The notes: generated by a model not told the origin, from the sequence alone. Shown: positions 6,251 to 56,533, counted from the first letter of the stretch. The stretch: 64,000 bases of DNA from an uncultured Desulfovibrionaceae bacterium (GCA_964440345.1 CAYTSA010000008.1:1830-65829), one strand, 5' to 3'. Program-made: numbers and translations.

Positions 6251-7357
6251 TCAAGCAGAGCTGCCCATTGTGCGCATAAAACGCCGGTCGATCCAATCTT
6301 TCAGCTTCATGGCCAGGACACTGCGAAACACGAAGGGCGGCCGGAAAAGCAGTCCGGTTCCGTCGCCCAGGTTGATGATAAGCATAAACTTCTGTACCGG
6401 CTTGAAAATCCGCAGAGGCTCGCCCAGGGCCCGGGCCGGGACGTTATGCAGTAGAATTGCGGCTTGCTTCACAGCGTGCACGCCCACCTTTTCCAGGGGC
6501 TGCGGCTGAAAGTCGATGCAGTCCCCGCCGCCAAAGATATCCGGCCATGCTACGCTCTGCAGACAGCCATTGACCAGCAGCCCGCCCGCGCCGCCCACGG
6601 GCAGGCCCGAGTCAGCAATGAACGGCGAAGGCCGGGCTCCTATGGCCAGCAGGGCAAGATCGTATCCGGACTCTGTTCCCGCTTCGCTACGGGCGACGCC
6701 CTCGTCCAGCGACTCCACCCGCTCGCCCTCGACCAGGGCCACGCCGTGTTCCTGAAGAGATCGTCGCACCAGAAGCCTGGCTTTGTCTGAAAATCTGTCC
6801 AGCAGCGTTCTGCCGGCGTAGAGCGTCACCCGCGGAGTTCCGCCGCACAGGCGAATCCAGCGCGCTACGTTGCCGGCTGTCTCCACCCCGGCGGCGCCGC
6901 CGCCAGCCACGGCTACGCGGACCTCTCCCTGCGCCGCCAGCTTTTCCAGCCGTTCCCTGGCCAACGCCAGGTTTTCAATAGGCTTTACCGGCAGAACGTC
7001 TTGCCTGCCCCCGGCCTGCAGCGGGTCTGGGACCACACTGCCCACATTAATGGAGAGCACGTCGTACGGCAGAGTCCGGCCTGACCCTGTGCCTACAGTT
7101 TTTGCGTGCGGGTCAATGGAAACCACCCGGTCCTGAATGAATTCCCCGCCCCCGGATTCCGTCATACGCTGCACAGGAAACCGCAAGTCGTCCGGCTCGT
7201 AAAAGCCTCCCAGCATGCCTGGCCCCATGCCGGAATAGGCGTGGGTAGGCTCCGGCCCGACGACAACCACGCTGCAGCCGTGTCGACGCAGGCTACGCAA
7301 AGATTTGACGAGGGCCAGATGGGCGTGGCCGCCTCCAGCCAGAACGATGCGCTTCAC
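6251..7357 (-). CDS. FAD/NAD(P)-binding pyridine nucleotide-disulfide oxidoreductase family protein
   Basis: 368 aa. Two dinucleotide-binding motifs (IVLAGGGHAHL; VAVAGGGAAGVE). From memory it resembles the stand-alone form of the flavoprotein domain found N-terminal to SelD in some species. Confidence 0.75.
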   Translation of the reverse strand: MKRIVLAGGGHAHLALVKSLRSLRRHGCSVVVVGPEPTHAYSGMGPGMLGGFYEPDDLRFPVQRMTESGGGEFIQDRVVSIDPHAKTVGTGSGRTLPYDVLSINVGSVVPDPLQAGGRQDVLPVKPIENLALARERLEKLAAQGEVRVAVAGGGAAGVETAGNVARWIRLCGGTPRVTLYAGRTLLDRFSDKARLLVRRSLQEHGVALVEGERVESLDEGVARSEAGTESGYDLALLAIGARPSPFIADSGLPVGGAGGLLVNGCLQSVAWPDIFGGGDCIDFQPQPLEKVGVHAVKQAAILLHNVPARALGEPLRIFKPVQKFMLIINLGDGTGLLFRPPFVFRSVLAMKLKDWIDRRFMRTMGSSA

Positions 7358-8094
7358 GCTGGGGATGCGCCGTCCGGCGTATCGCGGGCGTTCGTTTCTG
7401 GAACAAGGGAAAGGGCGCGGGCGGCGCGCATGGTGTAGGATTCAGCAAATCCGTTGCTTCCTCCGTGCCGCAGCAGGTGCGCAAGGTCCTCTACTGTATC
7501 CACGTCCCGCCACGGCGGCAGCATGGCTACGCTGCATCCAGCCTGCTCCAAGGCGGTCAGCGTCTGGTCCAGCACAAGGCCCGTGGACCAGTCTATGGAT
7601 TGGAAAACTTGACGACAAAACGTTTCTTTGCGCATGGCGATAAGATAATAGCCGCCGTCGCGGGCCGGTCCGAGCACGGCGTCTGTGCGGTTGAGTTCCC
7701 GATCTGCCTGGCGAATGAGCGATGGGGGCAAATCCGGCAGGTCCGATCCTATCACCGCGGCTTTTTCGGCGCCATTGTCAAACGCCGTCTGCATGGCGTT
7801 GGCCATGCGTTCGCCCAGGTCGGCGCCTTCTTGGGCCATATAAACATGCTCATCGCCAAGCCATTGACGCACGGCGTCAAGCTTCTCCGGCGGATGCACA
7901 CACAGCGTGAAACACAGTCCAGCCCGGGCGCATGTTTCCAGGCTGTCCAGTACAAAGGCGTTATACAGCGCAAGAGCAGTCTCGTTGCCGACTGCGTCGG
8001 CAAGCCGCGTCTTCACTTTCCCTGGTTCCGGGTGTTTCACAAAAAGCAGGAGCCGCATGGGCGGGCATTCGTATGAGACCATGGTAGACCCCAT
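7354..8094 (-). CDS. DUF2064 family (TIGR04282-like) nucleotide-transferase-fold protein
   Basis: MRLLLFVKHPEPGKVKTRLA is the hallmark DUF2064 N-terminus, so the alternative start at 8058 is likely. 4-nt overlap with the downstream oxidoreductase gene. Confidence 0.75.
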   Translation of the reverse strand: MGSTMVSYECPPMRLLLFVKHPEPGKVKTRLADAVGNETALALYNAFVLDSLETCARAGLCFTLCVHPPEKLDAVRQWLGDEHVYMAQEGADLGERMANAMQTAFDNGAEKAAVIGSDLPDLPPSLIRQADRELNRTDAVLGPARDGGYYLIAMRKETFCRQVFQSIDWSTGLVLDQTLTALEQAGCSVAMLPPWRDVDTVEDLAHLLRHGGSNGFAESYTMRAARALSLVPETNARDTPDGASPA

Positions 8095-9889: not shown

Positions 9890-10081
9890 ATGACCCATCC
9901 CGCCGTACTGCTGTTTAACGACGAAACTGCCAATATCGCAGCACAATCCAAACATATCCACACTGACGGGCAGACCGCCGGCCAGAAAGACGCCCCCCGC
10001 CAGTATACGCCGGAGACAGGCTGCCCTTCCCAGCCGTGCATCGTGGAGGAAGACTACTATTTAGGCGAGTCGCTTTTTTGA
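9890..10081 (+). CDS. Hypothetical small protein (63 aa)
   Basis: ATG with AGGAG 7 nt upstream. GC-rich third codon positions like neighbouring genes. No recognisable family. Lies in an otherwise gene-free 570-bp gap. Confidence 0.3.
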   Translation: MTHPAVLLFNDETANIAAQSKHIHTDGQTAGQKDAPRQYTPETGCPSQPCIVEEDYYLGESLF

Positions 10082-10100: not shown

Positions 10101-13100
10101 CTACACTGGCGCCAAATTACACTGAGATTTTGCAGGCAGCCAGGACTTTACTCTGGCGTGCGGGTCCATTTCACGGCCCAGCTGTTGCAACGAAAGGGCC
10201 GCAAAATCCCGTAGCGACAATTCCAGCACGTCCAGTCGGTTCGTCACATCTTCGCAAAACAGTTCGCCCCAACTGGAGGCGTAGACCAGCGTGGCGCGCT
10301 GCGCTTTTTTTGCCTCTCGCGGGGCGGTAAAATTGGCGGCTATGAACACGCGGACCACCTGCTCCCGCTCCAACCCGGCGTCTATGTCTGCGTCAAACAC
10401 TTTTGAGGCCGGAAAAAACTCCCGCAAAGCCTCCAGCATGTCCGTCACGTCTGGCATAGAGACCGGCGATTGCAGCGTGCTGGACCCGCGCAAGGGCATG
10501 TTGGCGTAGTACAACCCGTTGACCGCCAGCCAGGCGAATAGCCGGACGGGGTTCACATCCCGGGCTGCTTCCTCCACAGTGCGGCCTTTTTTGCCGCCTC
10601 CTTTGGTCATTTCCCCTTCGGCAACCCAGGCCACGGAAGCGCCTTGCACGCCCTCGCAGGAAAACTGCAAAGCGGAAAAAACCTCTTTGCGGGAGGTCAG
10701 CAACTGAATGCGCTTGATCTTGTTGGGCGCTTCCTGAAAGGTGCTGAATATTTTGCGGCCCAGCTTGGTCATGTCGTCGCCAGTTATGGCTATGTCGTAC
10801 TGCTTGCCGGCCAGTTGCTTCTGAATGCCGGCGTAAGTAGAAAACATGAACCGGGACAGCCGCTCGCTCAACGCCATCAGCTCGGCAAAACCCGGCAGGT
10901 CCCGGCCATGACGGCGCACGCCGTCCGGGTCCGCCACTGCCGGCGTAAGATTTTTCTCCATGGGCGACTCGCTGTACGGAAAAAAATACTCCACATAGCT
11001 GTCGCCGCGCATCTCAGTGCGGCGGCCCGTGGTCCGGGACAGGGGGTCAAACCCGGTTTTTTGCACAAAGGCCAGCTCCATCAAATCCCGCTCGTCCTTG
11101 CGCTCTGTTGCTTCATAGTGTTCATACAATTCGCGGAACAGCGCAGCGTAAGGGTCCACGTCCCAGACGTCGGCTTCGCCCCGGTACAATCTTTCTTTGA
11201 TTCTGTCGCACAGCAAGTCCCGATTCTCTGGATTGTGCACGTAGCGGTCCATAAGCGCCAGCTTCATGATGGATTTAAATGGAGACTTCAGGGCCTTGAC
11301 AATTTGCCACAGACAGGCGCCAAAAAACTCTTCCGGCGGTATATCGCCCAGATGCCCCAAATCCACCAACTGGGCCGCTTGAGCGCTACGGATCATGGGA
11401 GAGCGGACAACAGTGTGCAGCTGCTTAACGTAGGCTTTCTCGCTCAGCGCCGTAGGCAAGCAATGCCAAGCCGGTATCTTGCCGGCCAGCAGCATGGCCG
11501 TGCGGTAGAATTCCTCTTTAAGCAGCTTGGCCTGGGCCGAGCCCGCAGACTCCTGGCTGGAAAACCCAAAGTCGTTGGCCCGAATTTTATCCAGGTCCAT
11601 CAGAAAAAAATGCGTTTCCAGATTGAACGCTGTGTCCGCCCAATCCTCCAGAGCAGAGAGCTTATCCTGCAGTTCATTAAGCTTGTCATCGGGTATGCGC
11701 TCACGCTCATAACACACCCACAGGTCCAGATCCGACGTCCGGGTCTGGGCTATGGCCCCTGTGGAGCCTATGGAATAGACCGCCTCTATGGGTAAGCCGG
11801 AACGCTTGGCGCTCCAATCCACGTTGTCTGCCCCCAGGTGCTCCTCCAGCAGCATCACTGTCTCATGGTTCGGAGCGTAGCCGGAAATGATGCACTGCAC
11901 TGAGGGAAATACGTAGCTTTCCCCCCGGGAAACGCCTGGTGTTACAGGCGACTCGATAAGAGCGGGCAGCATTTTTAGAAAAGCGGCCTGTTCGCCCAGC
12001 TTCCACATCGTCCAGGCCAGGCGGTCAGCGTTGCGGGCCAGAAACACCCGCCTGCGGGCCGCCGCCTCCTTTTCGCTGAACCAGAGAGAGAGCAGCTTGT
12101 ACATGAAGCGCACGCCCTCGGCTGCGCCCAGCTCTGAGGGCAGGCCTGTTGCCTTGACTCCTTGGGCGGCTGTTTCCAGCTGGTCAAATAAGCTCTCATG
12201 CTCGGCCTGCAGCATCGCCGGGGAGTCGGAATCCAGCAGATGCACGCGCAGGTCGCTGCACGCCACACCGGTGAAACGCGCGCTGGTAACCGAGGAAGAA
12301 TGAATGAACGCTTTTTCAAACCGGGCGTCTTCAAAAGCTGCCCCGTGGCATTGCCACTGCCGCATGGCGCAGTGGGAAAAATTGGCGCTGGTGAAGCCGC
12401 ACCGTTCTACCTCCCAGTGAATCAAGGACGCGCCCCAGAAATCGTTTTCATAGAATTGGGAATCAGCGCACCGCAGATGCTCTGCCCTGGTCCCGGCAAA
12501 ATGGGCGGCGGTCAGTTTGCAGTGGTCAAACCGGACCCGCTTCAAAGCGGCGCCGTTGAACCGGCAATTCGTCAGAACGCACTTTTCGAAAACAACAGAT
12601 TCTAAAACTGAGCCTGTGAATTCCACGTTGCTCAGTTTGCAGCCTGTAAAATGGACGCCTTGCATGGCGCTGCGAGAAAGGTCCAGGTTTACCAGCGCCA
12701 CCTTGACGAACCGGTTCCTCTTGAAAGAGCACCCCGGCAGCGCCCCGTTCTGATACGTTTTTTCCTGCACGTTCTGGCCAGACTGCAGCTTGGTCAGAGC
12801 ATGTACGGCCCCTTCCGGGGCCTCTTCGTGCACGCCCATGGCCTTTTTCACCTGGGTTAAAAAGCCCCCCCCCTCCTTTGTTTCTGTCTTCCGGCTCACA
12901 GCCAGCGACGCCTTGGGCGGTTCGTACTCCGGTTTTCTGGCCAGGGGCGCAAATGCTTCCAGATACTGCTGCAAAGCTGTAACCACGTGCGAGCCGGTCT
13001 GTTCCTTGCTTGCCCGGGCGGCGGCCTTAACGCCGTGGTCCATCCATTCCGGCATGGCCCTGTGCACCATGACCAGCAAAAAAGCTAATGTTTGGGCGTG

Positions 13101-14069
13101 GTCGGTGGCGGGCAGAGACTTTATGTACTGGCTGAACTCCCGGGCGCTGCAGCGCATGAGTCTGGGGTTGACCTGCGGCCGCATAGCTGGAAACCGGGTG
13201 TGTAAAAACCCTGCCGCTGTGACAGCCTGACGAGCGCCCAGCGCCAGCAGGCAATCCAGCGCCGCCAGTTTGACGGCCGGATGCGGCTGCTTGAGAAACA
13301 GAGCCAACTGGCGCACCAGCTTCTGGTCCCCCCGCCGGCCAGTGCGGCCCACGGCTTCCAGCACGGCTATAAGGGATTCAGACCGCAATTCTCCGGCCCG
13401 GCGCAACAGGTCTGCAGCCAGCGAAGCAGACCGCAGCCGGCCGGCTGTTTTGCCCATGTAAGCTATCTGCGTTTCATCCAGGTCCATTTTTAGCAGCTGC
13501 CCCAGCCAGATGCCGAAACGGCCCTTCAACAGCTCGCGCTGCATGGGCAAGGCTGGCTCCTGCCGGCGTTCATCCAACTTTTCCAGGTAGAGCAGAGCCT
13601 CTTCCGGGTCTTCGCTCTGGTATATTTTGGCCAGGTCAAAGGCCCACTGCAAAAACCAGGGCTCCACCTTGCGCGGAGAGCGGAAAAACTGGTCCAACAA
13701 AATAAGCTGCTGATTCGGTTCGTAATTGGAAAGAAAAGCCCCAAGAGCTTCCGCCCGGACCTTGCCTTTGTGCAGATAGCGGCCGGCCAGGTGTTCCCCT
13801 ACTGGCCCAAGCTCCAGTAAAAGGCCGAAACCGGACGAGACAGTGGACTGGTCCTGGGTGTTTTCTATGATGGTGGAGATAGTGTGCGCCAGGTCTGAGG
13901 TGTAGCGCTGGCCCTCCAGCGAGTCCATGTCCTCCCGGGCGAGCAGGGAAAGGGCCTGGTCGATGAGCGGACGCGAGTCAGACGGAATGAACGGAGGCGA
14001 GGTGCGCAGCATTGACCGCACAGACCCGAGCAGCTCATCCAAAGGGGCGTGCATGGGAGAATCGGACAT
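10101..14069 (-). CDS. cyaA: Class I (CyaA-type) adenylate cyclase with N-terminal HEAT-like and pentapeptide-repeat extension
   Basis: 1322 aa. The C-terminal ~600 aa align with E. coli CyaA as I recall it: VYSIGSTGAIAQTRTSDLDLWVCY (Ec: [24 protein letters not shown]), LLKEEFYRTAMLLAGK (Ec: LLLDEFYRTAVRLAGK), EEFFGACLWQIVKALKSPFKSIMKLAL (Ec: [27 protein letters not shown]). Residues ~445-625 are pentapeptide repeats. Residues ~1-440 are helical and HEAT-like. Confidence 0.85.
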   Translation of the reverse strand: MSDSPMHAPLDELLGSVRSMLRTSPPFIPSDSRPLIDQALSLLAREDMDSLEGQRYTSDLAHTISTIIENTQDQSTVSSGFGLLLELGPVGEHLAGRYLHKGKVRAEALGAFLSNYEPNQQLILLDQFFRSPRKVEPWFLQWAFDLAKIYQSEDPEEALLYLEKLDERRQEPALPMQRELLKGRFGIWLGQLLKMDLDETQIAYMGKTAGRLRSASLAADLLRRAGELRSESLIAVLEAVGRTGRRGDQKLVRQLALFLKQPHPAVKLAALDCLLALGARQAVTAAGFLHTRFPAMRPQVNPRLMRCSAREFSQYIKSLPATDHAQTLAFLLVMVHRAMPEWMDHGVKAAARASKEQTGSHVVTALQQYLEAFAPLARKPEYEPPKASLAVSRKTETKEGGGFLTQVKKAMGVHEEAPEGAVHALTKLQSGQNVQEKTYQNGALPGCSFKRNRFVKVALVNLDLSRSAMQGVHFTGCKLSNVEFTGSVLESVVFEKCVLTNCRFNGAALKRVRFDHCKLTAAHFAGTRAEHLRCADSQFYENDFWGASLIHWEVERCGFTSANFSHCAMRQWQCHGAAFEDARFEKAFIHSSSVTSARFTGVACSDLRVHLLDSDSPAMLQAEHESLFDQLETAAQGVKATGLPSELGAAEGVRFMYKLLSLWFSEKEAAARRRVFLARNADRLAWTMWKLGEQAAFLKMLPALIESPVTPGVSRGESYVFPSVQCIISGYAPNHETVMLLEEHLGADNVDWSAKRSGLPIEAVYSIGSTGAIAQTRTSDLDLWVCYERERIPDDKLNELQDKLSALEDWADTAFNLETHFFLMDLDKIRANDFGFSSQESAGSAQAKLLKEEFYRTAMLLAGKIPAWHCLPTALSEKAYVKQLHTVVRSPMIRSAQAAQLVDLGHLGDIPPEEFFGACLWQIVKALKSPFKSIMKLALMDRYVHNPENRDLLCDRIKERLYRGEADVWDVDPYAALFRELYEHYEATERKDERDLMELAFVQKTGFDPLSRTTGRRTEMRGDSYVEYFFPYSESPMEKNLTPAVADPDGVRRHGRDLPGFAELMALSERLSRFMFSTYAGIQKQLAGKQYDIAITGDDMTKLGRKIFSTFQEAPNKIKRIQLLTSRKEVFSALQFSCEGVQGASVAWVAEGEMTKGGGKKGRTVEEAARDVNPVRLFAWLAVNGLYYANMPLRGSSTLQSPVSMPDVTDMLEALREFFPASKVFDADIDAGLEREQVVRVFIAANFTAPREAKKAQRATLVYASSWGELFCEDVTNRLDVLELSLRDFAALSLQQLGREMDPHARVKSWLPAKSQCNLAPV

Positions 14070-14071
14070 GC

Positions 14072-15376
14072 TTAGCCTGCCTCCGACACTGTATCAGCGT
14101 AGTAGTTTATCTGCTTGCTCGGGCTCAGGTACGCAAACATCTCCCGGGAAAGCTCTTCCGGCCGCAGCGTTTTGATAATGTCCAGATTGGTCTCAATGGT
14201 CAGGTCCACAATGAGGGCCTCCTTTTTGGGCACCTCAGGATGGTAGACCAACACGCCAGGCCGGGCCGCCTTTTGCAAGTTGGTGGAGACGACCATGCCG
14301 TACAAACCGTTGGACAGTTGCACCACAGTGCCTGGCGGATAGACGCCCATGTTGCGGATGAAGGCGGAAAGAATTTTCCCGTCCAGCATTTTCTTCATGG
14401 ACGAATACATTTTCTTCAACACGTCGTGGGGCGTCAGGGCCCCGCCGTCTCTGGGGTTGCACAGATTGTCGTAGGCGTTGGTCACGGCCACTATCTTGGC
14501 CAGGGGAGAAATATCGTTTCCTTGAAGTTTTTTCGGAAAGCCCGAGCCGTCAATGTTTTCATGGTGCTGCAGGATGATGTGCCGGGCCTCTGAAGGATAT
14601 GCGGCCATGGATGTTACCAGTTTCACGCCCAAGGCCGGGTGCTGCTTGTAGTACTTTTCCGCCGCCGCCTTGATGGAGAGCACCTTGTTCTCCTTTAGCG
14701 CGCTCATGGGTATGCGGCCCTTGCCAATGTCGTGAAACAAAGCGCCCATGCCCAGGTAATGCATGGTCTTGGAGTCCAGGCCGAACTCCTTGCCCAGAAT
14801 CATCGACAGCACTGTGACGTTCAGGGCGTGCAGGTTCTGCTGCCCCTCTGCCGGTTTGTTGGTCATCAGGTTGATGACAACGTCGCGCTCAGATAAAAAC
14901 GTACCCACCATGGCGTCCACAGCCTGGCCGGCCTCCTCCATGGCGTCCTCGGCCTTGCCTGAGGCCCGGCGCAAAATGGTGGTTATGGACGACACCGTGG
15001 CTTCATACTGTTTCTCGCACCGGGCAAAGCGCTCTTTGCGCTCCTTGTTGCGCTCTATGGTCTCCCGTTTCAGTCCCAACAACTGCCGCGACACCGGGGT
15101 CTTCATCGGCACCTTTTTTTTCTTTTTGGCTTCTTCTTCCTCCAGAGAGGGGGCGGCCTTGCGCTCCAACGGGATGGGCAGAGTGTCGCTCTTGTTCAGC
15201 ACGCAGGTCACGTGGGTGAAGCCGGCTCTTTTAATCTTCTCCACCTGCTTCTGGTTCTTTATCTTAAAGCTGTTGCGCAAAAAGGGAGATTTGGCGCGGC
15301 CTGAGGACTCCAGGCGCACGAAAAGGCCGGGACACAGCTGGTCCACGTGGATGGGATACTCAGAAAAGTTGCTCAT
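14072..15376 (-). CDS. DUF3391 + HD-GYP domain phosphodiesterase
   Basis: 434 aa. DUF3391-like N-terminus (VDQLCPGLFVRLE..SPFL). HD motif HDIGK. HHENIDGSGFP (the GYP motif reads GFP). Its stop lies 3 nt from the cyclase start. Confidence 0.85.
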   Translation of the reverse strand: MSNFSEYPIHVDQLCPGLFVRLESSGRAKSPFLRNSFKIKNQKQVEKIKRAGFTHVTCVLNKSDTLPIPLERKAAPSLEEEEAKKKKKVPMKTPVSRQLLGLKRETIERNKERKERFARCEKQYEATVSSITTILRRASGKAEDAMEEAGQAVDAMVGTFLSERDVVINLMTNKPAEGQQNLHALNVTVLSMILGKEFGLDSKTMHYLGMGALFHDIGKGRIPMSALKENKVLSIKAAAEKYYKQHPALGVKLVTSMAAYPSEARHIILQHHENIDGSGFPKKLQGNDISPLAKIVAVTNAYDNLCNPRDGGALTPHDVLKKMYSSMKKMLDGKILSAFIRNMGVYPPGTVVQLSNGLYGMVVSTNLQKAARPGVLVYHPEVPKKEALIVDLTIETNLDIIKTLRPEELSREMFAYLSPSKQINYYADTVSEAG

Positions 15377-15472: not shown

Positions 15473-16516
15473 TCAAGCGCAATTGCAGAGCGGTTCCTGC
15501 ATGCAAAGGCAGTGTATTGCCCCATATCCCAGGATGAGGTCCCCGGCGTACACGCCGTAGGCTGGCCGGCCTGTCAGTTCTGCAAGCAGGCCCAGCGCAC
15601 GACAGTCCGCCGGGTCGTTAAAGGTGGGAACCAACAAGCCAGCGTTGCACACAGCGTAGTTGGCGTAGCTGGCCGGCAGGGGCCAGCCGTCAAAAAACAG
15701 GGGCTGCGGCATGGGCAGGTCCACAATCTCGGCCCGGGAGCCGTCCTCCAGCACGGCGTCCTGCAGCCTCTCCCGGTTTTCCTGCATGGCCCTGTAGTTG
15801 GGGTCGCCGGGATTATCCGGCCTGCATAAGACCAAAGTCCTGGCGTCTACAAAGCGGCAAAAGTCGTCCACGTGGCCATGGGTGTCGTCGCCAGCCACGC
15901 CCCGGCCCAGCCAAATGGCGTTGGAAGCGCCCAGCCACTCTGCAAACAGCGCTTCGTACTGCGCCTTGCCCATGCCCGGGTTGCGCACTTGCACCGCCGG
16001 GTCCAGCAAGCATTCCTCGCTGACGATGATGGTCCCCCGGCCGTTCACCTCTATGGCGCCGCCCTCCAGCACCGCCGGACCGGCCTTCCATTGCGGCCGT
16101 GACAGAGGCAGCCCCAGCCAGCCGGCCGCCCGCTCTGGAATCCGGGCGTCCAAAACCCAGTCAGGATACTTGGCCCAGCCGGTGAAACCAAAACCAACGA
16201 CGGCGCGGCCTGCGGCGGAATCTTCCACCACACAGGGTCCGCTGTCCCGCAGCCAGCCCCTGTTAGTCTCCATGTGCAGAAAATCCACGCCGCCACTATC
16301 CACCCCCGCCCGGGACAGGCAGCGCCGGGCCTCTGTTTCCAAACGCTCGTTCTGCACCAGCAACCGCACCCGCTCACCCTGCAGGATGCGCCGGATGATC
16401 TCCACGTACACCCAGCGGATGGACGCGAATTTTCCGGGCCAGTCCGAGCTTCTGTGCGGCCAGCACAGCCACGTGGCTTCGTGCGGCTCCCACTCTGCAG
16501 GCAGACGACAGGCCAT
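15473..16516 (-). CDS. aguA: Agmatine deiminase (peptidyl-arginine deiminase superfamily)
   Basis: 347 aa. EWEPHEATWLCWPH N-terminal motif and C-terminal catalytic-cysteine motif GAIHCLCMQEP. Confidence 0.85.
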   Translation of the reverse strand: MACRLPAEWEPHEATWLCWPHRSSDWPGKFASIRWVYVEIIRRILQGERVRLLVQNERLETEARRCLSRAGVDSGGVDFLHMETNRGWLRDSGPCVVEDSAAGRAVVGFGFTGWAKYPDWVLDARIPERAAGWLGLPLSRPQWKAGPAVLEGGAIEVNGRGTIIVSEECLLDPAVQVRNPGMGKAQYEALFAEWLGASNAIWLGRGVAGDDTHGHVDDFCRFVDARTLVLCRPDNPGDPNYRAMQENRERLQDAVLEDGSRAEIVDLPMPQPLFFDGWPLPASYANYAVCNAGLLVPTFNDPADCRALGLLAELTGRPAYGVYAGDLILGYGAIHCLCMQEPLCNCA

Positions 16517-16525
16517 GAAAACGCT

Positions 16526-17623
16526 CTATCCTTTGCGCTTGCGCAGCCGCTGGTCCAAACCCTTAACAAGCAAGGGCCAGGCAATGGTGGCGTCACTGTG
16601 CACCTCGGCGTAACGTCCGCCCTGCTCCGGCGGGGCGAATTTGCCCCAGCTCACGCCTTCAGAATAGGTGCAACCCGAAAGGCCGCCCCAGTGCACGGGC
16701 TCAGGACATACTCGCACGCCGTACGTAAAACGCCGAGCCGGCAAATCCATCTTAGGAACCCGCTGGGAGGCAATCTCCACAAACGGTCCCACCTGCTGCG
16801 CCCAGTTGCGGGGCACGCCGCCGCCTATGGTAAAAATGCCCATTTTTTTCGCCTTCAGGCAGCGCTGCGTGTAGCTGTAAAGGTCAAGAAAAGGGTTGAA
16901 CTGAAACGGCAACTGCGACGGTTCCACTCCTTCAGTCATCAGCTGTGCATTGGCGCGCATCATGTGCGTGGCCACGTCCAGCGCCAGCTCCGAATCCGTA
17001 AACGCCGGGATGTAGACCGGCACGCCCTGGCGGTAGGCGGATTTCAGCACGCCAACGCCTTCGTAGTGCGCGTCCAAATGCTTGCCAATGGCCTGGCACA
17101 AAGACTCCGAGCACATGAAAGGCTCGCCTTCCAGCTCGTCCAGAACGCGGCTGAGCACCTCCTCGGCCTGGGTAAAGTTCGACTCCGGCTCCAGGGTGTC
17201 GTAAACCCTGTTGTACCCCTTGGAAAACAGCGCCTTGTCGTCCATGCGGCCGAATTCGTACTTGTAGTGCTTCAGGCCTATGGACTCTACGAAACCGTGC
17301 GCCATAAGCGCGCCTGTGGAAATGACCACGTCCACCCAGCCGGCGTCGATCATCTTGCACAAGACGCCGGTCATCTTGGCCACAGTCATGGCGCCGGACA
17401 AGGTGGCGACCACCATGCAGTCTTCGTCCGTGACCATGGCCTCCAGCACGTCCAGCGCCTCGCCCAGGTTCCGGCCGCCAAAGGCCGTCCGAGACATGGC
17501 GGAGAGCATGTCGTCAATGTCTTCCAGGGCGTCCGGGTCCAGGGTCTGCAGTGGTGTCAACCCGTCCTTTTCGGCGTTTCCCAGCTCCTCCAGAGAACGC
17601 ATTCCGTTCTTGGCGTGTTCCAT
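16526..17623 (-). CDS. Deoxyhypusine synthase family protein (bacterial homospermidine-synthase-like)
   Basis: 365 aa. Typical DHS-family pattern (TLSGAMTVAKM, VISTGALMAHG, IPAFTDSELALD, GGGVPRNW). Confidence 0.8.
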   Translation of the reverse strand: MEHAKNGMRSLEELGNAEKDGLTPLQTLDPDALEDIDDMLSAMSRTAFGGRNLGEALDVLEAMVTDEDCMVVATLSGAMTVAKMTGVLCKMIDAGWVDVVISTGALMAHGFVESIGLKHYKYEFGRMDDKALFSKGYNRVYDTLEPESNFTQAEEVLSRVLDELEGEPFMCSESLCQAIGKHLDAHYEGVGVLKSAYRQGVPVYIPAFTDSELALDVATHMMRANAQLMTEGVEPSQLPFQFNPFLDLYSYTQRCLKAKKMGIFTIGGGVPRNWAQQVGPFVEIASQRVPKMDLPARRFTYGVRVCPEPVHWGGLSGCTYSEGVSWGKFAPPEQGGRYAEVHSDATIAWPLLVKGLDQRLRKRKG

Positions 17624-17636
17624 GTCGCTCCTTAGG

Positions 17637-18188
17637 TTACGGCAGCAATACGGCCACCGCCAGGGTTGTTGTCCACATGCCCCCCTGTCCGTTGGTTACG
17701 CAGGTCTTGGACAAAGAGTCAATTATCTTCCCGGACATCATGTAGATATTGCGGCGCTCGTCATAATCGTGCTCGGGGTCGAAATCGATGCCCAGCGTGG
17801 TGGCCAGCATGGTGGAGGCCAGATCCTCGGCAAAGTCTCCCATTTCTTTCTCATCCTGGCCGAAACCGGTGTGCTCGGAAATGTAGCCGTACTGGTTCTT
17901 GTCCGCTGGAAAGGCCATGCCAACGGCGGAGCCCACCAGCCGGCCCTTCTCGTCGGTGGCGTTGCGGGCCATAACGCAAAAGGTGATCTGCCCGGGGCAC
18001 AGATGTTTCACGCCCTCGTCAACTTCCAGAATTTCAGCCTGAGGCGGCAAAATGGACGACACGTACACCAGATTCTGCTTCTCTATTTTTGCTTCGCGCA
18101 GAGCCAGCTCAAAAGACTGCAGCTTGTTCTTGTGCCGGCCAATGCCGCGTGTGAAAAACACTTTTTTGGGGACAAACGTGCATTGCAT
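17637..18188 (-). CDS. pdaD: Pyruvoyl-dependent arginine decarboxylase
   Basis: 183 aa from ATG 18188 ([17 protein letters not shown]). Ser-Ser self-cleavage site context VYVSSILPP. The ORF track extends to 18248. Confidence 0.8.
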
Positions 18189-18385
18189 GGTCAGGGTTAC
18201 CTCCTTGAGCGGCCTAAAGGGTATATAGTTCACGTCAACATGATCCAAATGCGACGCTTTGTAACATGCTGCGCGTCATGTCAAGCGTTCATGCTGGGGC
18301 CAGGTCTCTGGAAGGCGATTTCTTTTTTAAAAATCCGCTGCAGCCTCTTGCTTCCTTTGAAGAATAGCCGCGCCATTCAAATCTG

Positions 18386-19834
18386 TCACTCCCCCGCCAA
18401 ACGGCCCAGCGTTTTGATTCCAGAGTCCATGCGCTCGTTCCACACCCCGTTGCAGCTGAGCCGGATGCAGTTGCGAAACGAGTCGTGGGCAGAAAAGATA
18501 TTGCCTGGAGCGACGCCAACGCCAAACTGCTTGGCCCGGTAGAACAGCTCCACCCCGTCCCGGAGTCCCGGGCCGTTTGGGGGCAGTTCCACCCACAGAG
18601 CGCTGCCCCCAGCCGGATCGGTAACCCGCGTCCCAGCAGGAAAATGCCGAGCCACAGCGTGGCGCATGGCCTGCATCTGGCTTTGTATAGCCGTGCGCAG
18701 CTGCTTCAGGTGGCGGTCGAAGTTGCCCCGGTTCAGGTATTCAGCCACCGTCAGCTGCGTCAGCGAAGGGCAGCAGACGTTGGTGGTGGCTTTCACCTCC
18801 AAGGCTTTGTCCATAAACCGGCCTGGCGCCATGTAGCCCACCCGGTAGCCAGGCGCCAGCACCTTGGAAAAGGACGAGCACAGGATGACGTTGCTCTCCT
18901 CGCCCGGCCTGTCATATCCTTTGCACGCCCTGGGCCGCGGCCCGCCAAAATGCAAATCCCCGTAAACGTCATCCTCCACAAGCGGAACCTCGGCCCGGTC
19001 CAAAATGCGCACGATTTCGGCCTTGACTTCCTCCGGAACTAGGCTGCCGTCCGGGTTGTTGAAGCTGGGGCACAGAATGCAGGCGGCCACAGGATAGGTC
19101 CTCACAGCCTCATCCAAGTGGGCCGGGTCCACCCCGTCCTCCGGGCAGGAAGGCAGCTCGATGGCCCGCAAGCCAAGCGTTTCCAGCAACTGCAGAAAAC
19201 AGTAATACGTCGGGGACTGGATGATCACCGTATCCCCGGGCCGGGTGAGGCAGCGCAGGGAAATGTACAATGCCTCCAGAGCGCCCCCTGTGATGATCAG
19301 CTCTTCCGGCTTGATGGACGTTCCCCAGTCCGGCGCACGGAAGGCCACGGCCCGGCGCAATGCGTCCAGGCCATGCACCGGCCCGTAGCCCAAGGCCGCG
19401 TCGGGCTGCTCCTGCAGCACAGCACGGGCCATGCGGGCCAGCGTCTTGCCGGGCAAAACCTCTTCCGCAGGACAGACCACAGCCAGGGGCAGCAGCTCAT
19501 GGTCGCCCACAGCCTCCAGCACTGTGGAGATAAGCCCGCCGCGGGTAACCGCGCGCGGGGTTTCCGCCGCCCGCGCCTTGCGCTGGGGAGTTTGCACGCT
19601 GCGCACGTGCCGCCGCACGAAAAAGCCGGACCTGGGCCGGGCCTCGACCACGCCCTTGCGCTCCAGCTCCACGTAAGCGCGGTTCACCGTGGCCACAGAA
19701 AGCCCCATGCAGCCGGAAAGCCTCCGCAAGGACGGCAGACGCGCCCCGGGCGACAGCTCGCCGGCGTCCATCATGGCCAGCAGTTGTTGCTCCACCCGCC
19801 TGTAGTGTAAGTCAGCATCCGGGCTGCGAGCCAT
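18386..19834 (-). CDS. MocR/GabR-type transcriptional regulator (GntR wHTH + fold-type I aminotransferase domain)
   Basis: 482 aa. N-terminal GntR HTH (LPSLRRLSGCMGLSVATVNRAYVELE). PLP-lysine motif SFSKVLAPGYRVGY. Divergent from azlCD. Confidence 0.85.
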   Translation of the reverse strand: MARSPDADLHYRRVEQQLLAMMDAGELSPGARLPSLRRLSGCMGLSVATVNRAYVELERKGVVEARPRSGFFVRRHVRSVQTPQRKARAAETPRAVTRGGLISTVLEAVGDHELLPLAVVCPAEEVLPGKTLARMARAVLQEQPDAALGYGPVHGLDALRRAVAFRAPDWGTSIKPEELIITGGALEALYISLRCLTRPGDTVIIQSPTYYCFLQLLETLGLRAIELPSCPEDGVDPAHLDEAVRTYPVAACILCPSFNNPDGSLVPEEVKAEIVRILDRAEVPLVEDDVYGDLHFGGPRPRACKGYDRPGEESNVILCSSFSKVLAPGYRVGYMAPGRFMDKALEVKATTNVCCPSLTQLTVAEYLNRGNFDRHLKQLRTAIQSQMQAMRHAVARHFPAGTRVTDPAGGSALWVELPPNGPGLRDGVELFYRAKQFGVGVAPGNIFSAHDSFRNCIRLSCNGVWNERMDSGIKTLGRLAGE

Positions 19835-20966: not shown

Positions 20967-22637
20967 CTACTGCAGCAACAGCTGCAGTAGCGGCCCGGTC
21001 CCCACAGCCGGCGCTGGCGGCCACTCGGCGGCAAACACGCCGAATTTGGAGAGGCCAAGGTCTACATGATATAATGCCAGAACAACCTCCGTGCCGGCGT
21101 CATTGACGGCCCTGCCTTTCAAAGGGGCTTTGGCGTCATAAAACGGAGGAGTTGCCAAGCCGCCCCATAAAATATTGGTAAAGCCGAATACGCCAAATCC
21201 CGTCCGTGTCGCGTAGCGCAGCGCTCCCTGCTCCATGACTGGCAAGCCCGGGTCGTGCCCCGCCCACACCGCCATGGATTCGTCGCCTTCAAGGTACACC
21301 CCGGCGGCAAACGGCGTGCTGGTATTGAGTTCGTCCAACCAGCCGCTCAACTGGACCTCTGACATCCAACCGCCGCCGCTATTGGCCCGGCGCATGCTCC
21401 AGTAATAGGCCAGTTGCGAGCCGGCTGGCTGTGCGGCGTCCTGTCCGCTGAATAACAGCAAGACTTCGCCGCCGTCCTGGCGCATGGCTATGTCCATTAT
21501 GTCTGGCGAATTCATATTTGAACCGAAGAACGACTCCGTGCTCCATTGGCTGCCCGGGTCGCGGTATGTGGCGTACACCGCCTTTGCCGTGCCGGTTATC
21601 TGCCCCAGCCAGGCGAGCACGGAATAGCCCCCGCGCATGTAGGCCTGCAGGTCCTCCACCGTGTTCAGCGCAAAAATGTTTGAGCTCCTGTCAGGAGAAC
21701 TCCAGCTGTGCGAGGCGACTTGCCAGGTGGCGGACCAGATGTACACGCCGGTTCCGCCGGGATTCTTGGCCGCCCAGGCAGCCAACACCGACCCGTCGTC
21801 ATTCATAACCGGCTGGGCCAGCCAATTCACCTTTGTAGGGTCTTCCGGCTCCACGCCGGTGACCACTGTGTCAGTCCCGGAGGAAGGAGTCCACGCCGTA
21901 GCCGCCGGGTCCCACCAGCGCGAGAGCAGCGACCAGTTGTTGCCCATAACCCCGGAGGTCTGCCCCCAGAGCACGAAAACTTCGCCGGCGTTATTCACAA
22001 ACACATAGCACCCGTCCATGCCTTCGTTGCCTGTGGCCGAGTCCAGCCTCTCTATGGGCTCCCAGGCAAAAGCGCCATTGAACAATCTCGTGGCGTACAG
22101 CTGGCACGGCCCCTGGTCCGACAAGCTCGGGTTTGTCGCCTGGGTGGCCACCCAGCACACCGCCGCGTCGCCCGTCTCGCCCACAGATACGTCCACGTCT
22201 CGTATGTGTATCTCGGTGGAGGAGACCTGCTCAGTAGTCCAAGAGCCGGCTGCGCCGCGTCGAGACACATTGACGTACTGGCCAAACGCGTTGACTTCCA
22301 CCCAGGCGAACCAGACCGTTCCATCCGGGCCGACCGCCGCCGCCGGCGAAACAGAAGAATATTGCGCAGCGGACATCCAGCCGGTTATGGACTGCGCCTC
22401 CCTCCAGGGTTTGCCTGACGGCTTGACCGCAGCGGCATGCTGAATAGTGGTGCTGGAAGTGTCCATCTCAGTCCAGAACGCGGCGCTGTCCCCGGAGCTG
22501 TTCATCTGCACCCAGACTTCCGTTATCAGGTCCGCCCACCCAGAGCGATTTTTGGGCGTGCTCCACTCAGCCCATGACGTAGCTGTACAAGCCGTCACCA
22601 CAATAATAACTGCAACAAACATAACCAAACGCTGCAT
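20967..22637 (-). CDS. Secreted repeat protein, probable beta-propeller (no family recognised)
   Basis: 556 aa with an N-terminal signal peptide (MQRLVMFVAVIIVVTACTATSWA). Seven or more degenerate ~60-aa repeats of the form D-G-x-V-(L/W)-x-A-W ... W-(S/T) (e.g. PDGTVWFAWVE, DDGSVLAAWAA, QDGGEVLLLFS). Confidence 0.6.
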   Translation of the reverse strand: MQRLVMFVAVIIVVTACTATSWAEWSTPKNRSGWADLITEVWVQMNSSGDSAAFWTEMDTSSTTIQHAAAVKPSGKPWREAQSITGWMSAAQYSSVSPAAAVGPDGTVWFAWVEVNAFGQYVNVSRRGAAGSWTTEQVSSTEIHIRDVDVSVGETGDAAVCWVATQATNPSLSDQGPCQLYATRLFNGAFAWEPIERLDSATGNEGMDGCYVFVNNAGEVFVLWGQTSGVMGNNWSLLSRWWDPAATAWTPSSGTDTVVTGVEPEDPTKVNWLAQPVMNDDGSVLAAWAAKNPGGTGVYIWSATWQVASHSWSSPDRSSNIFALNTVEDLQAYMRGGYSVLAWLGQITGTAKAVYATYRDPGSQWSTESFFGSNMNSPDIMDIAMRQDGGEVLLLFSGQDAAQPAGSQLAYYWSMRRANSGGGWMSEVQLSGWLDELNTSTPFAAGVYLEGDESMAVWAGHDPGLPVMEQGALRYATRTGFGVFGFTNILWGGLATPPFYDAKAPLKGRAVNDAGTEVVLALYHVDLGLSKFGVFAAEWPPAPAVGTGPLLQLLLQ

Positions 22638-27338: not shown

Positions 27339-28958
27339 ATGACACAGAAAATTGCCATCATCGGCTTTGACGGAGCCACCTTCGACGTTATTACGCCACT
27401 GGCCAAACGCGGCCTCATGCCCAACTTTAAGCGATTTATGGAAGAGGGGGCCCACGGCCCCCTTGTTTCCACATTGCCCCCTCTTAGCCCAGTGGCCTGG
27501 ACTTCCATGATAACCGGAGTCAATCCAGCCAAACATGGCGTTTTTGACTTCATCGTGACCAAACGCCATGAGAACGAGCGGCGCATCCACTTCAACAGCG
27601 GCGGCGACCGCAAGATTGCCCCCATCTGGAGCCATATTGGCGAATACAAAATGAAATCCGTGGCGCTGAACGTTCCCATGACTTACCCGCCGGACAAGAT
27701 TCCCGGCGTGATCGTCTCCGGCATGGACGCGCCAAGCGTGGATTCCGACTTTGTCCACCCGCCAGAGGCCAAGGAAAAGCTGCTACAGGCAGCTCCTGAA
27801 TACGTCATTGAAATGCACATGGACCGCCGCTACCTGAAACGCCAGGACCTTTACCTGAAAGACCTCTTCGCCTCTGAAGAAGCCAAACTGAAAGCCAGCC
27901 TGCACTTTGCAAACACCGAAGACTGGTCTTTCTACATGACAGTGTTCACCGGTCTGGACCGTACGCAACACATGTTCATGGACGTTTTCGACTTTACAGC
28001 GCCAGCGCAGGAACTGGCCAAGAACCCCGTGCTGGCTACATACATGAAAATGGACGAATACCTCGGCCGGCTGATGGAGCAGCTGGGCGACGGCATCAAC
28101 GTGCTGGTGGTTTCAGACCACGGTTTCGGTCCTGTCCGCAACTTATTCTCCTTGAACAAATGGCTCATCCAGAACGGCTACATGAAGCTGGCCAAAGAGC
28201 AGGACCGGCAGAAAAAGTTTTTACAGGACAACATGGGCAAAATACGCCGCAAAATACAACGCATGCTTTCCCCGGGCGGACCGGTTGAGTCAAGCATGTT
28301 CGGCGAGCTGGAAGGACGCTCCGTCTTGCGCAACGTAGACTGGGAGAACACCCAGGCTTTCAGCTTTGGCTCCGCGCCGTCCATCTATATCAACCGCGAG
28401 GCAGTGCCAGACCCCGCCGAGCGCGTCCGGCTCATCGAGCGGATGACGACGGGGCTGCGACAAATCAAGGATCCAATGACCGGCGAATACATCTTCCGCC
28501 AAGTAGAGCCCGCGGACACAGCCTATGAGGGCCCGCTTCTTGAGCAAGGACCGGACATTGTGGCTGAGCACGCTGCAGGCTGGCAATATGAACAGATGAT
28601 GCTTTTCGGGTCTGAGCGGGTAAGCGGCCAGGGCGACCCCATCTCCCGCCAGCCTGGCTCCTCTGGCAATCACGTGCGCGAAGGAATACTGTTGGCAAAA
28701 GGTCCGCTCGTAAAACAGGGCGCCCTGCTCACTGCCAATATCATGGACATAGCCCCCACCGCCTACTACTGTCTGGGCATGGAAATTCCCGGCAACCTGG
28801 ACGGCAAGCTGCTTACCGAAATGCTGGACCCGGCCAGACTGCAGTCTGCCCCGCCGGCATACGGTCCGGACCTGCCCATAAGCGGCCAGGAGGGCGACTA
28901 TTCCGACAGCGAGAAACAGGCCATTGAGGAACGCCTGAAGAACCTGGGCTACATGTAA
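27339..28958 (+). CDS. Alkaline phosphatase superfamily protein (type I phosphodiesterase / nucleotide pyrophosphatase family), soluble
   Basis: 539 aa. IAIIGFDGATFDV metal-ligand motif. Nucleophile region TLPPLSPVAWTSMITG. VVSDHGF metal-ligand motif. No TM segment or signal peptide seen. Confidence 0.75.
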   Translation: MTQKIAIIGFDGATFDVITPLAKRGLMPNFKRFMEEGAHGPLVSTLPPLSPVAWTSMITGVNPAKHGVFDFIVTKRHENERRIHFNSGGDRKIAPIWSHIGEYKMKSVALNVPMTYPPDKIPGVIVSGMDAPSVDSDFVHPPEAKEKLLQAAPEYVIEMHMDRRYLKRQDLYLKDLFASEEAKLKASLHFANTEDWSFYMTVFTGLDRTQHMFMDVFDFTAPAQELAKNPVLATYMKMDEYLGRLMEQLGDGINVLVVSDHGFGPVRNLFSLNKWLIQNGYMKLAKEQDRQKKFLQDNMGKIRRKIQRMLSPGGPVESSMFGELEGRSVLRNVDWENTQAFSFGSAPSIYINREAVPDPAERVRLIERMTTGLRQIKDPMTGEYIFRQVEPADTAYEGPLLEQGPDIVAEHAAGWQYEQMMLFGSERVSGQGDPISRQPGSSGNHVREGILLAKGPLVKQGALLTANIMDIAPTAYYCLGMEIPGNLDGKLLTEMLDPARLQSAPPAYGPDLPISGQEGDYSDSEKQAIEERLKNLGYM

Positions 28959-28960: not shown

Positions 28961-29914
28961 ATGAAAGACAGACTGACCGAAACAGCCAAGTCGGCGTTCC
29001 TGGCCGTGGCCAAGAGAGTGTTCCCCCAAGCCCCGCATGCGGCGCTGCATCGGCTGGGCGACCTTGTCGGCCCCATCATGATAGGCGAAAAGGGCCGCAT
29101 CATCAGAGAAGAGCTGGGCGCGCTGTTGCCGGAGCTTTCCAGCCAGGACCTGGACGACGCGCTATACAAAGCCATGCGCAACTTCCGTAAGGATCTGTTC
29201 GAGATATGGTCCTTCCCCGGCCTGACCCAGGAAAAAGTGAACCGCTTGTGCATTCTGGAAGGCCGGGAACATCTGGACAAGGCCCTGGAAAAAGGCAAAG
29301 GCGCCATTATCTGCCTGACCCATTTCGGCTCCTGGAAAATCGTCCTGCCAGCCCTTGCCTTCAACGGCTACTCCGTGCACCAGGTGGCGGCCGATCCCAT
29401 GACCTTTGTGCGCGACGGGGAAAGCCCGGCCCACAACCAGATCATGTCATTTGAACGGCAATGTGAGGCCAGCTTGCCTGTGCAGTTCATCTACGTAAAC
29501 GACAAAGCAGTCCACAAACCGCTGTACAAGGCCCTGCAGAAGAATGAAATTGTCGTTGTCGCCCTGGACGGCGTCCTGGGCCGGGAACGGCTGTTTTGCG
29601 ACTTTCTGGCCGGCAGTCTGGGACTTTCCACCGGACCCGCGTCCTTGGCGCACCGTACGGGGTCGGCCTTGTTGCCGGAATTCGCCATCCGGGGCAGTGA
29701 CAACAGGCACAGGGTGACCATGCACCCGCCCCTGGACGTTTCCACAGAGCTGGACAGGGAAACCTTCATCCGCCAGTGGTGCGAACGCTTTGCCCGGCTT
29801 TTTGCCGCTCAGGTGCGCCAGCATCCAGACCATTACGCCAGGTTCCTGTTCACCTTGCGCAAATACCCGGTGGAAGGCATAGGGTCGGTCATCCGCGCAA
29901 AGGAAGCAGCGTGA
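28961..29914 (+). CDS. LpxL/HtrB-type lysophospholipid (lipid A-like) acyltransferase family protein
   Basis: 317 aa. Family-typical GKGAIICLTHFGSWKIV block. The usual H-x4-(D/E) dyad reads H-F-G-S-W-K here. Confidence 0.7.
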   Translation: MKDRLTETAKSAFLAVAKRVFPQAPHAALHRLGDLVGPIMIGEKGRIIREELGALLPELSSQDLDDALYKAMRNFRKDLFEIWSFPGLTQEKVNRLCILEGREHLDKALEKGKGAIICLTHFGSWKIVLPALAFNGYSVHQVAADPMTFVRDGESPAHNQIMSFERQCEASLPVQFIYVNDKAVHKPLYKALQKNEIVVVALDGVLGRERLFCDFLAGSLGLSTGPASLAHRTGSALLPEFAIRGSDNRHRVTMHPPLDVSTELDRETFIRQWCERFARLFAAQVRQHPDHYARFLFTLRKYPVEGIGSVIRAKEAA

Positions 29915-46883: not shown

Positions 46884-46910
46884 AGTTCTTCAGATTCCCT
46901 TGGCGACCCT

Positions 46911-49384: not shown

Positions 49385-49387
49385 GCG

Positions 49388-51058: not shown

Positions 51059-51166
51059 GACGCCGCCTTGGACTGATAGTGTAAAGGTCCAAAACGCAAA
51101 ATACCTCATTGCCTCAATGTTTGCAACATGTTGCTAAACTTACTGCGCGTACCGGACAACGAGGCG

Positions 51167-56520: not shown

Positions 56521-56533
56521 GCAGTTCCTCGCT

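Follow-up and report, generated by a model that had tools for sequence, protein, structure and literature searches.

Introduction

To our knowledge, almost everything known about adenylate cyclases of class I comes from the enzyme of enterobacteria, which the sugar phosphotransferase system controls. In the present work we analyzed a gene pair from an uncultured Desulfovibrionaceae bacterium in which a cyclase of this class is directly preceded by a gene for an HD-GYP protein. The two genes were read as adjacent open reading frames (ORFs) on the minus strand of a 64,000-nucleotide stretch of DNA (GCA_964440345.1 CAYTSA010000008.1:1830-65829), referred to below as the window. A preliminary description made from the sequence alone had reported a cyclase with an N-terminal extension adjoining an HD-GYP gene, and this observation is confirmed here. 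From the interpretation that came with it, the class I identity, the pairing and the deltaproteobacterial host hold, the relatives of both genes being of the Desulfovibrionaceae type, whereas the supposed rarity of the extension and the use of a GFP motif as a signature do not.

The closest described cyclase, the 848-amino-acid (aa) CyaA of Escherichia coli, has in common with the window enzyme the GS-x9-SDxDxW motif, the residues K136, R188 and D300, and the Adenyl_cycl_N and Adenylate_cycl domains, whereas the window enzyme carries about 670 extra N-terminal residues that make up a solenoid, a beta-helix and a connector. Short class I cyclases of about 640-700 aa, represented by the NF006981 model, are colinear with the cyclase module of the window protein but have neither the solenoid nor the pentapeptide module.

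The HD-GYP protein of the pair has the DUF3391-HD-GYP architecture that Galperin and Chou call the “Bd1817 family” (bioRxiv 10.1101/2021.11.05.467447). With the family members PA4108, VC2497 and Bd1817 it shares the two-domain architecture and the full set of metal ligands, whereas the clade to which it belongs has lost the KPG and RxY[K/R] motifs and, in most members, carries Phe in place of Tyr in the GYP motif. In enzymes acting on cyclic di-GMP (c-di-GMP), KPG holds the guanine Gua2 via main-chain atoms, and RxY[K/R] contacts Gua1 and is largely responsible for c-di-GMP specificity; Lys changes in the latter motif move some HD-GYPs to cyclic GMP-AMP (cGAMP) (bioRxiv 10.1101/2021.11.05.467447). 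V-cGAP and other cGAMP-specific HD-GYPs (5z7c) thus set a precedent for changes in base contacts that retarget the enzyme to another cyclic nucleotide. These enzymes keep the Arg and alter only the Lys (RxxQ/RxxN), whereas the whole motif is gone in the clade of the window protein, and their genes, unlike that of the window HD-GYP, have no class I cyclase as a partner.

On balance, and with modest confidence, the comparisons presented below favor the view that the pair is a conserved cyclic-nucleotide signaling module of Desulfovibrionaceae, in which the HD-GYP protein would counteract or gate the signal from the cyclase.

Conservation of the gene pair

An HD-GYP orthologue was found directly upstream of the long-form cyclase gene, on the same strand, in 10/10 related loci that we checked. 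These comprise five loci from GTDB genomes (L003-L007), one each from Desulfovibrio inopinatus (L013), Desulfolutivibrio sulfoxidireducens (L014) and Megalodesulfovibrio paquesii (L023, with a spacer of 7 nucleotides (nt) between the two genes), a metagenome contig (L016), and L021, where the downstream ORF is cut short and matches the N-terminus of the cyclase with an E-value of 2e-28. The pairing statistic thus has a sample size of ten; a genome scan with a four-sequence alignment gave five loci, and a metagenome scan gave one close relative. A search of L003-L007 for the polyamine genes, the malic enzyme gene and the DUF2064 gene of the window found none of them, and the annotated flanks of the remaining paired loci differ from those of the window. 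Because the other flanking genes differ between loci, we regard the two-gene pair as the conserved unit, and for the same reason the polyamine genes were rejected as part of the module. The preliminary description had made its reading depend beforehand on the pairing being conserved in other genomes, and this is what the ten loci, with their otherwise different neighborhoods, show.

This recurrence across several genera makes it hardly credible that the two genes are functionally unrelated and adjacent by chance. Such an explanation could draw upon the polyamine genes, which share this strand with a gap of just 96 nt to the HD-GYP gene, and upon the existence of long-form cyclases without an HD-GYP neighbor, but none of the other window genes searched was found with the pair in L003-L007, and the annotated flanks of the remaining loci differ.

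The junction of the two genes is tight. The HD-GYP stop codon and the cyclase start codon are separated by 2 nt (TAA-GC-ATG), and not by the 3 nt given earlier, and the HD-GYP gene contains a GGAGG Shine-Dalgarno sequence 10 nt ahead of the cyclase ATG. The 2-nt spacer and the internal Shine-Dalgarno sequence make a common transcript of both genes probable. A scan for promoters and terminators returned 2 promoter-like sites, compared to 1.9 expected.

The HD-GYP orthologues are 44-61% identical to the window protein, all have the DUF3391-HD-GYP architecture, and all come from Desulfovibrionaceae (Oceanidesulfovibrio, Desulfolutivibrio, Desulfobaculum, Desulfocurvus, Megalodesulfovibrio, D. inopinatus and D. 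ferrophilus). They are more conserved than the cyclases, where the window protein and the paired orthologues compared are 30-38% identical. At 43% identity or below, homologues of the HD-GYP protein have no cyclase gene after them (L015, L022). This boundary between linked and unlinked proteins, at 44% versus 43% identity, falls where the E-value steps from 1e-115 to 1e-102, and it also coincides with the loss of KPG and a 2-residue insertion at the KPG site.

Some variation around the pair was seen in individual loci. The cyclase locus L008 (493-6009) and the paired locus L014 (5927-12999) both have a divergent upstream TPR gene and two small convergent downstream ORFs, and L008 is without the HD-GYP gene that L014 holds between the TPR gene and the cyclase gene, which suggests that the partner was lost or relocated in one lineage. 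In L003, a Desulfovibrionaceae metagenome-assembled genome (MAG), the HD-GYP orthologue is split in two frames (6414-7705), reflecting either a frameshift or an assembly error. In L011 (9956-11446) and L009 (10144-10542), a gene for a receiver (REC) protein without further domains comes after an unpaired distant long-form cyclase, and L011 has in addition a convergent gene for a 284-aa HD-domain protein; these neighbors may represent an alternative set of partners. A consistent second partner for the unpaired cyclases, be it the HD protein, REC or TPR, was rejected, as the neighbors are inconsistent between loci.

The cyclase has a class I catalytic module

The C-terminal part of the 1322-aa protein is a genuine class I cyclase with an intact catalytic motif. 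Pfam assigned Adenyl_cycl_N (PF12633) to residues 674-868 with 155.3 bits and Adenylate_cycl (PF01295) with 105.6 bits, both against a gathering cut-off of 27. The latter match is divided into two stretches, one of them at residues 901-1005, and the best stretch covers just positions 2-106 of the 601 in the model. The best NCBIfam match was NF006981, a 638-position model for short class I cyclases, which aligned colinearly from residues 671-1278 to model positions 22-619, with a score of 369 bits that is below the equivalog threshold of 802. BLASTP aligned residues 700-1220 to residues 37-532 of CyaA from E. coli K-12 with 28% identity and an E-value of 2e-45.

In this alignment the residues S769, S779, D780, D782 and W784 correspond to S103, S113, D114, D116 and W118 of CyaA, whose catalytic role we take as given by the mutagenesis literature. 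The positions of the catalytic motif are 95-99% conserved across 108 long-form members of the family (see below). Among the columns with at least 95% conservation in these members, 34/39 are identical in CyaA, including G102, S103, S113, D114, D116, W118, K136, R188 and D300 (CyaA numbering). From this we infer that the window cyclase makes cyclic AMP (cAMP) from ATP.

The same module might instead make another cyclic nucleoside monophosphate, or an oligonucleotide, for which the divergent HD-GYP would be the dedicated hydrolase. The Pol-beta superfamily does include synthases of cyclic di- and oligonucleotides, HD-GYPs are known to hydrolyse cyclic dinucleotides including cGAMP, and the base-contact motifs of the HD-GYP partner are altered. 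Even so we regard a product other than cAMP as very improbable, considering the near-identity of the most conserved family positions to a cAMP-forming enzyme and some 600 residues of colinearity with the models for class I. Moreover, neither the cyclase nor the HD-GYP protein matched any of the PADLOC models of defense systems, which was also the ground for rejecting a role of the pair in anti-phage defense.

According to the preliminary description, the C-terminal 600 residues or so match both the catalytic and the regulatory regions of CyaA motif for motif. This is correct for the catalytic core, whereas the distal regulatory region is absent. In an alignment of the 108 long-form members and CyaA, conserved positions reach to about W602 of CyaA, after which some 55 residues remain in the window protein. 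The last 200-300 residues of the CyaA regulatory domain are without counterpart, and the window cyclase does not contain the full enterobacterial C-terminal regulatory domain (CyaA residues 540-848, approximately). Foldseek, when run on a model of the beta-helix and the cyclase module, gave no cyclase-domain neighbor among the significant matches.

The long-form cyclases constitute a large family

To determine the extent of the family, residues 1-1200 were used as query for HMMER, which exhaustively searched 1.84 billion cluster representatives. Representatives stand for clusters at 50% identity. At E<1e-30 the search gave 600 matches, and 108 of the best 150 have lengths of 1200-1450 aa, corresponding to at least 108 clusters with the full architecture. 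Among the matches listed, most long members align from residue 5-80 or so to about residue 1195 with 24-40% identity. The window cyclase itself is a singleton in clustering at 90% identity and is at most 40% identical to any database match. Its nearest relatives without the extension are proteins of 660-700 aa, for instance from Tectomicrobia and Nitrospinota MAGs.

It is clear from these numbers that the combination of solenoid, beta-helix and cyclase is the architecture of a large family and not a one-off fusion. Two earlier statements need revision in this light: that class I cyclases as a rule have no extension of this kind is contradicted by the 108 or more extended representatives among the best 150, and that they are characteristic of gammaproteobacteria is too narrow, since they also occur in Desulfovibrionaceae, Tectomicrobia and Nitrospinota. 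At NCBI and JGI, members already carry the names “class I adenylate cyclase” or “adenylate cyclase, class 1”. One named example is WP_027185953.1 from D. inopinatus (1318 aa), which belongs to the window cyclase's own family and has both the full architecture and the upstream HD-GYP gene (locus L013), as in the window.

The HD-GYP partner keeps the metal site and loses the guanine contacts

In agreement with the earlier assignment, the upstream gene encodes a DUF3391 domain (72.9 bits) followed by an HD-GYP domain (HD_5, residues 167-334, 83 bits). The best sequence matches in the PDB were Bd1817 (3tm8, E-value 2e-12), PmGH (4mcw) and V-cGAP3 (5z7c). All metal ligands are present (H183, H215, D216, H246, H271, H272 and D303). 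At the position of E185 in PmGH, which belongs to a trinuclear center, the window protein has Q and the orthologues compared have T or A, where an acidic residue would be needed for a third metal; the alignment of this position is somewhat uncertain, as conserved Glu residues are found 1-2 positions upstream. Because the third-metal position is non-acidic, the sequence suggests that the metal site is binuclear.

For quantification of the motif changes we compared 89 sequences from the linked clade with the 30 nearest unlinked relatives, the linked status of the 89 being extrapolated from the 10 checked loci and the sequence boundary. Six of the ligands (H183, H215, D216, H246, H271 and H272) are invariant in both groups (89/89 and 30/30), and D303 is found in 83/89 linked and 30/30 unlinked proteins. 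A K[PR]G motif is present in only 1/89 linked proteins, compared to 16/30 of the unlinked ones, while Rx[YF][KR] is missing from both groups (0/89 and 0/30). In the canonical comparators, PmGH and the distant HD-GYPs L017-L020, the same columns hold LxKPG and DALTSxRxYK.

The GYP motif itself reads G279-F280-P281 in the window protein (HHENIDGSGFP at residues 271-281). The GFP reported in the preliminary description is thus present, but it is no marker of a new specificity: the position holds F in 62 and Y in 25 of the 89 linked proteins, and mostly Y in the 30 unlinked ones. Since both residues occur at this position inside the linked clade, we rejected GFP as a signature of specificity.

Because the metal ligands are kept while KPG and RxY[K/R] are lost, the linked clade looks catalytically competent, and yet canonical binding of c-di-GMP seems unlikely. 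These changes, which the preliminary description had not noted, speak in favor of a changed substrate and are compatible with the idea put forward there, without thereby identifying the substrate as cAMP.

An alternative to be weighed here is that the HD-GYP is an ordinary c-di-GMP phosphodiesterase, and that co-expression with the cyclase lowers c-di-GMP and raises cAMP with no substrate shared between the two enzymes. PA4108 and VC2497, of the same DUF3391-HD-GYP architecture, hydrolyse c-di-GMP, and one HD-GYP with an RxxS variant of the motif reportedly still cleaves it (bioRxiv 10.1101/2021.11.05.467447). The intact metal ligands fit this explanation as well, and since KPG contacts Gua2 via main-chain atoms, changes of side chains at this site may be tolerated. 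The virtual absence of both guanine-contacting motifs from the linked clade argues in the other direction, as do the 2-residue insertion at the KPG site and the replacement by Phe, in 62/89 proteins, of the GYP Tyr that bonds to the ribose-phosphate ring. On this evidence we consider such cross-talk unlikely, though by no means negligible. The more specific proposal, in which the specificity of the clade has shifted away from c-di-GMP and toward the product of the cyclase, cAMP or another adenine nucleotide, is likewise unlikely but not negligible.

A second HD-GYP-type protein is encoded elsewhere in the window (54586-56574, minus strand). It has 662 aa with GAF and HD_5 domains, which is the architecture of PmGH.

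The N-terminal modules of the cyclase

The N-terminal extension was analyzed with AlphaFold2 (AF2) models that were interpreted domain by domain. Residues 1-360 were modeled from a 21-sequence alignment as 21 helices that form an alpha-solenoid of stacked hairpins or triplets, with a predicted local distance difference test (pLDDT) value of 90.1 and a predicted template modeling (TM) score of 0.81. Pfam gave no family over residues 1-440 at E<=0.01, and hence no HEAT or ARM family by sequence. The Foldseek neighbors are generic armadillo/HEAT proteins only, with weak E-values from 2e-3 to 2e-2 and TM scores of 0.3-0.45; designed armadillo proteins, importin-alpha, beta-catenin and PP2A-A are the top matches, and none of these generic repeat proteins is a specific homologue of residues 1-360. 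The family consensus is best conserved at residues 154-189 (DPEEALLYLE...QRELLKGRFGIWL). In the model, residues 1-360 are thus ARM/HEAT-like at the level of fold class. This bears out the HEAT-like nature proposed earlier for the first 440 residues or so, except that residues 361-443 turned out to be a variable linker.

The pentapeptide-repeat beta-helix was placed correctly in the preliminary description (nt 12195-12737). Pfam found Pentapeptide_4, Pentapeptide and Pentapeptide_3 at residues 469-605, with 65 and 43 bits for the pentapeptide families (PF00805, PF13599), and the tandem pentapeptides of A(D/N)LXX type keep a continuous register, the central position of the repeat being hydrophobic in 35/37 units between residues 444 and 615, approximately. 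AF2 modeled the region with pLDDT values of 93-98 and a strand period of 20 residues. Foldseek matched it to 6fls, AlbG, QnrB1, HetL and MfpA (E-values from 1e-8 to 1e-5, the best being 2e-8), and sequence matches to AlbG, Qnr and MfpA in the PDB had E-values down to 5e-9. These pentapeptide proteins form a quadrilateral beta-helix like that of the window cyclase. AlbG, QnrB1, MfpA, HetL and 6fls, however, occur on their own as proteins of some 200 aa, and several of them mimic DNA and act on gyrase, whereas in the window cyclase the beta-helix is built into an enzyme. The model further shows a long helix that spans protein residues 650-706, approximately (model positions 220-276).

Solenoids of the ARM/HEAT type and pentapeptide beta-helices typically serve as scaffolds for protein binding. 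A regulatory or docking role of the N-terminal modules is plausible. The scaffolds could even be the docking site of the HD-GYP protein, which would then be a regulatory subunit that binds the solenoid or beta-helix and controls the cyclase by contact, with hydrolysis being secondary. Probable translational coupling across the 2-nt spacer would suit partners made in stoichiometric amounts, the HD-GYP protein is better conserved than the cyclase, and catalytically inactive HD-GYPs of the RpfG family reportedly regulate via protein-protein interactions. A purely structural partner would, on the other hand, have no need for invariant metal ligands, and close relatives of the cyclase exist without a neighboring HD-GYP gene. 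We consider this arrangement quite improbable.

Proposed function of the pair

Our favored reading, a signaling module in which the HD-GYP protein counteracts or gates the cyclase, would work as follows. The C-terminal 650 residues or so would form a CyaA-type Pol-beta site converting ATP to cAMP, with D780 and D782 as metal ligands. Control would be exerted from the N-terminus and would replace the missing distal enterobacterial regulatory domain: the ARM/HEAT-like solenoid may offer a surface for binding proteins or ligands as the regulatory or docking input, and the beta-helix (about 8.5 coils) together with the long helix may be a rigid connector that holds the solenoid away from the catalytic domain. 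The HD-GYP protein would be a phosphodiesterase, probably binuclear, without the motifs that grip guanine. It could hydrolyse the product of the cyclase, or else act on another nucleotide so that two messengers change reciprocally.

Several observations weigh against this reading. Loss of RxY[K/R] is not specific to linkage with the cyclase, as the nearest unlinked HD-GYPs are also without the motif, and activity on c-di-GMP has been reported for the RxxS variant mentioned above. The L008 cyclase has no adjacent HD-GYP gene in spite of being 54% identical to the paired L016 cyclase, and distant long-form cyclases (24-28% identity) are unpaired. No gene for CRP or another receptor binding cyclic nucleoside monophosphates was found among the main ORFs of the window. 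All nine class I models in NCBIfam score the window cyclase below their own equivalog cut-offs, and the protein is thus not an equivalog of any curated class I subgroup. Finally, a sequence search of the PDB gave no solved structure of a class I cyclase, and base specificity cannot be read from the sequence.

If the retargeting of the HD-GYP to cAMP is true, the protein would be the first cAMP phosphodiesterase of HD-GYP type. In that case the pair, with the solenoid and beta-helix of the cyclase as a new sensory input, would make up a self-contained cAMP circuit in the sulfate-reducing Desulfovibrionaceae. The large family found in Desulfovibrionaceae and in unidentified metagenomic lineages lacks most of the enterobacterial regulatory region and has the solenoid and beta-helix at the N-terminus instead. 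The substrate of the HD-GYP protein bears either on the action of HD-GYPs on cAMP or on the wiring between cAMP and c-di-GMP in sulfate reducers. In the literature searched, where subscription journals were thinly covered, we found no description of the long-form architecture or its HD-GYP partner and none of an HD-GYP cAMP phosphodiesterase; a description of cAMP signaling in sulfate reducers was not found either. The family has been named by database pipelines, and neither the conservation of the pair nor the motif loss in the partner was found in the literature searched.

Surroundings of the pair and other features of the window

The features of the two genes and the genes upstream of them are listed in Table 1.

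Table 1 Features of the cyclase and HD-GYP genes and of the upstream genes; coordinates are those of the window.
Feature	Position	Strand	Basis
HD-GYP gene, 434-aa DUF3391 + HD-GYP protein, Bd1817-type architecture, first of the pair	14072..15376	(-)	ORF; Pfam
DUF3391 domain, residues 9-147	14936..15352	(-)	Pfam PF11871, 72.9 bits; conserved among linked orthologues
HD-GYP catalytic domain, residues ~167-343	14348..14878	(-)	Pfam HD_5, HD; alignment to 4mcw, 3tm8
LKENK at the KPG site, KPG lost, 2-residue insertion	14684..14698	(-)	Alignments
QHHENIDGSGFP motif, F280 replacing Tyr of GYP	14534..14569	(-)	Sequence; F 62, Y 25 in the clade
NPRDGG at the RxY[K/R] site, motif lost	14441..14458	(-)	Alignments
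Conserved C-terminal extension, GVYPPGTVV...LSPS.QINYYA	14075..14347	(-)	Orthologue alignments
Gene junction: GGAGG Shine-Dalgarno inside HD-GYP 3' end, TAA, 2-nt spacer, cyclase ATG	14070..14090	(-)	Direct sequence reading
Long-form class I adenylate cyclase gene, 1322 aa	10101..14069	(-)	ORF, Pfam, NCBIfam, end-to-end homologues of ~1300 aa
ARM/HEAT-like alpha-solenoid, residues 1-360	12990..14069	(-)	AF2, Foldseek, family consensus
Variable linker, residues 361-443	12741..12989	(-)	Lowest conservation, 30-35% gaps (108-member alignment)
Pentapeptide-repeat right-handed beta-helix, ~34 units / 8.5 coils, residues 444-615	12225..12740	(-)	Pfam, register, AF2, Foldseek
Helical connector, beta-helix to cyclase, residues 616-670	12060..12224	(-)	AF2 secondary structure
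Adenyl_cycl_N, Pol-beta-type nucleotidyltransferase catalytic core, residues 671-868	11466..12059	(-)	Pfam PF12633; BLASTP to CyaA
Catalytic motif GSTGAIAQTRTSDLDLW, aligned exactly to E. coli G102-W118	11718..11768	(-)	BLASTP, family alignment
Rest of class I cyclase module, residues 869-1322	10101..11465	(-)	PF01295, NF006981, BLASTP
Agmatine deiminase	15473-16516	(-)	
Deoxyhypusine-synthase-like protein	16526-17623	(-)	
Pyruvoyl-dependent arginine decarboxylase	17637-18248	(-)	
GntR + aminotransferase (MocR-type) regulator, beyond the polyamine genes	18386-19834	(-)	

Upstream of the HD-GYP gene, on the same strand and after the 96-nt spacer, lies a polyamine cluster (15473-19834). Downstream of the cyclase gene there is a convergent ORF of 63 aa (9890-10081, plus strand) and a malic enzyme gene. 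The small ORF has a good Shine-Dalgarno sequence, and gene calling on the Logan contig L001 picked it up as well; it gave no family match.

A cluster for surface polysaccharide occupies positions 22763-44632. It contains genes for Wzz, a flippase, a Wzy_C ligase-like protein, glycosyltransferases of families GT2 and GT9, a sulfotransferase, Poly_export, a sugar transferase and an AMP-binding enzyme. The same cluster includes two B12-binding radical SAM enzymes (29776-31272 and 38492-39961), two DUF362 proteins (36188-37567, with 4Fe-4S motifs, and 41062-42300), and a type I phosphodiesterase/nucleotide pyrophosphatase (27339-28958). For two long ORFs, 20967-22637 (minus strand, 556 aa) and 31285-32790 (plus strand, 501 aa), Pfam returned no family at thresholds of E<=1e-3 or 1e-4.

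Further along, an operon at 45702-51109 combines MacB/FtsX, an ABC ATPase and an outer-membrane efflux protein with a 586-aa protein in which an N-terminal PAS domain is joined to an HlyD-type membrane-fusion protein (47624-49384, minus strand), a fusion that looks unusual to us. At 57582-59702 (minus strand) a single chain of 706 aa carries ATP-grasp_2, Ligase_CoA, CoA_binding and Succ_CoA_lig, and is thus a fusion of the alpha and beta parts of a succinyl-CoA-ligase-like enzyme.

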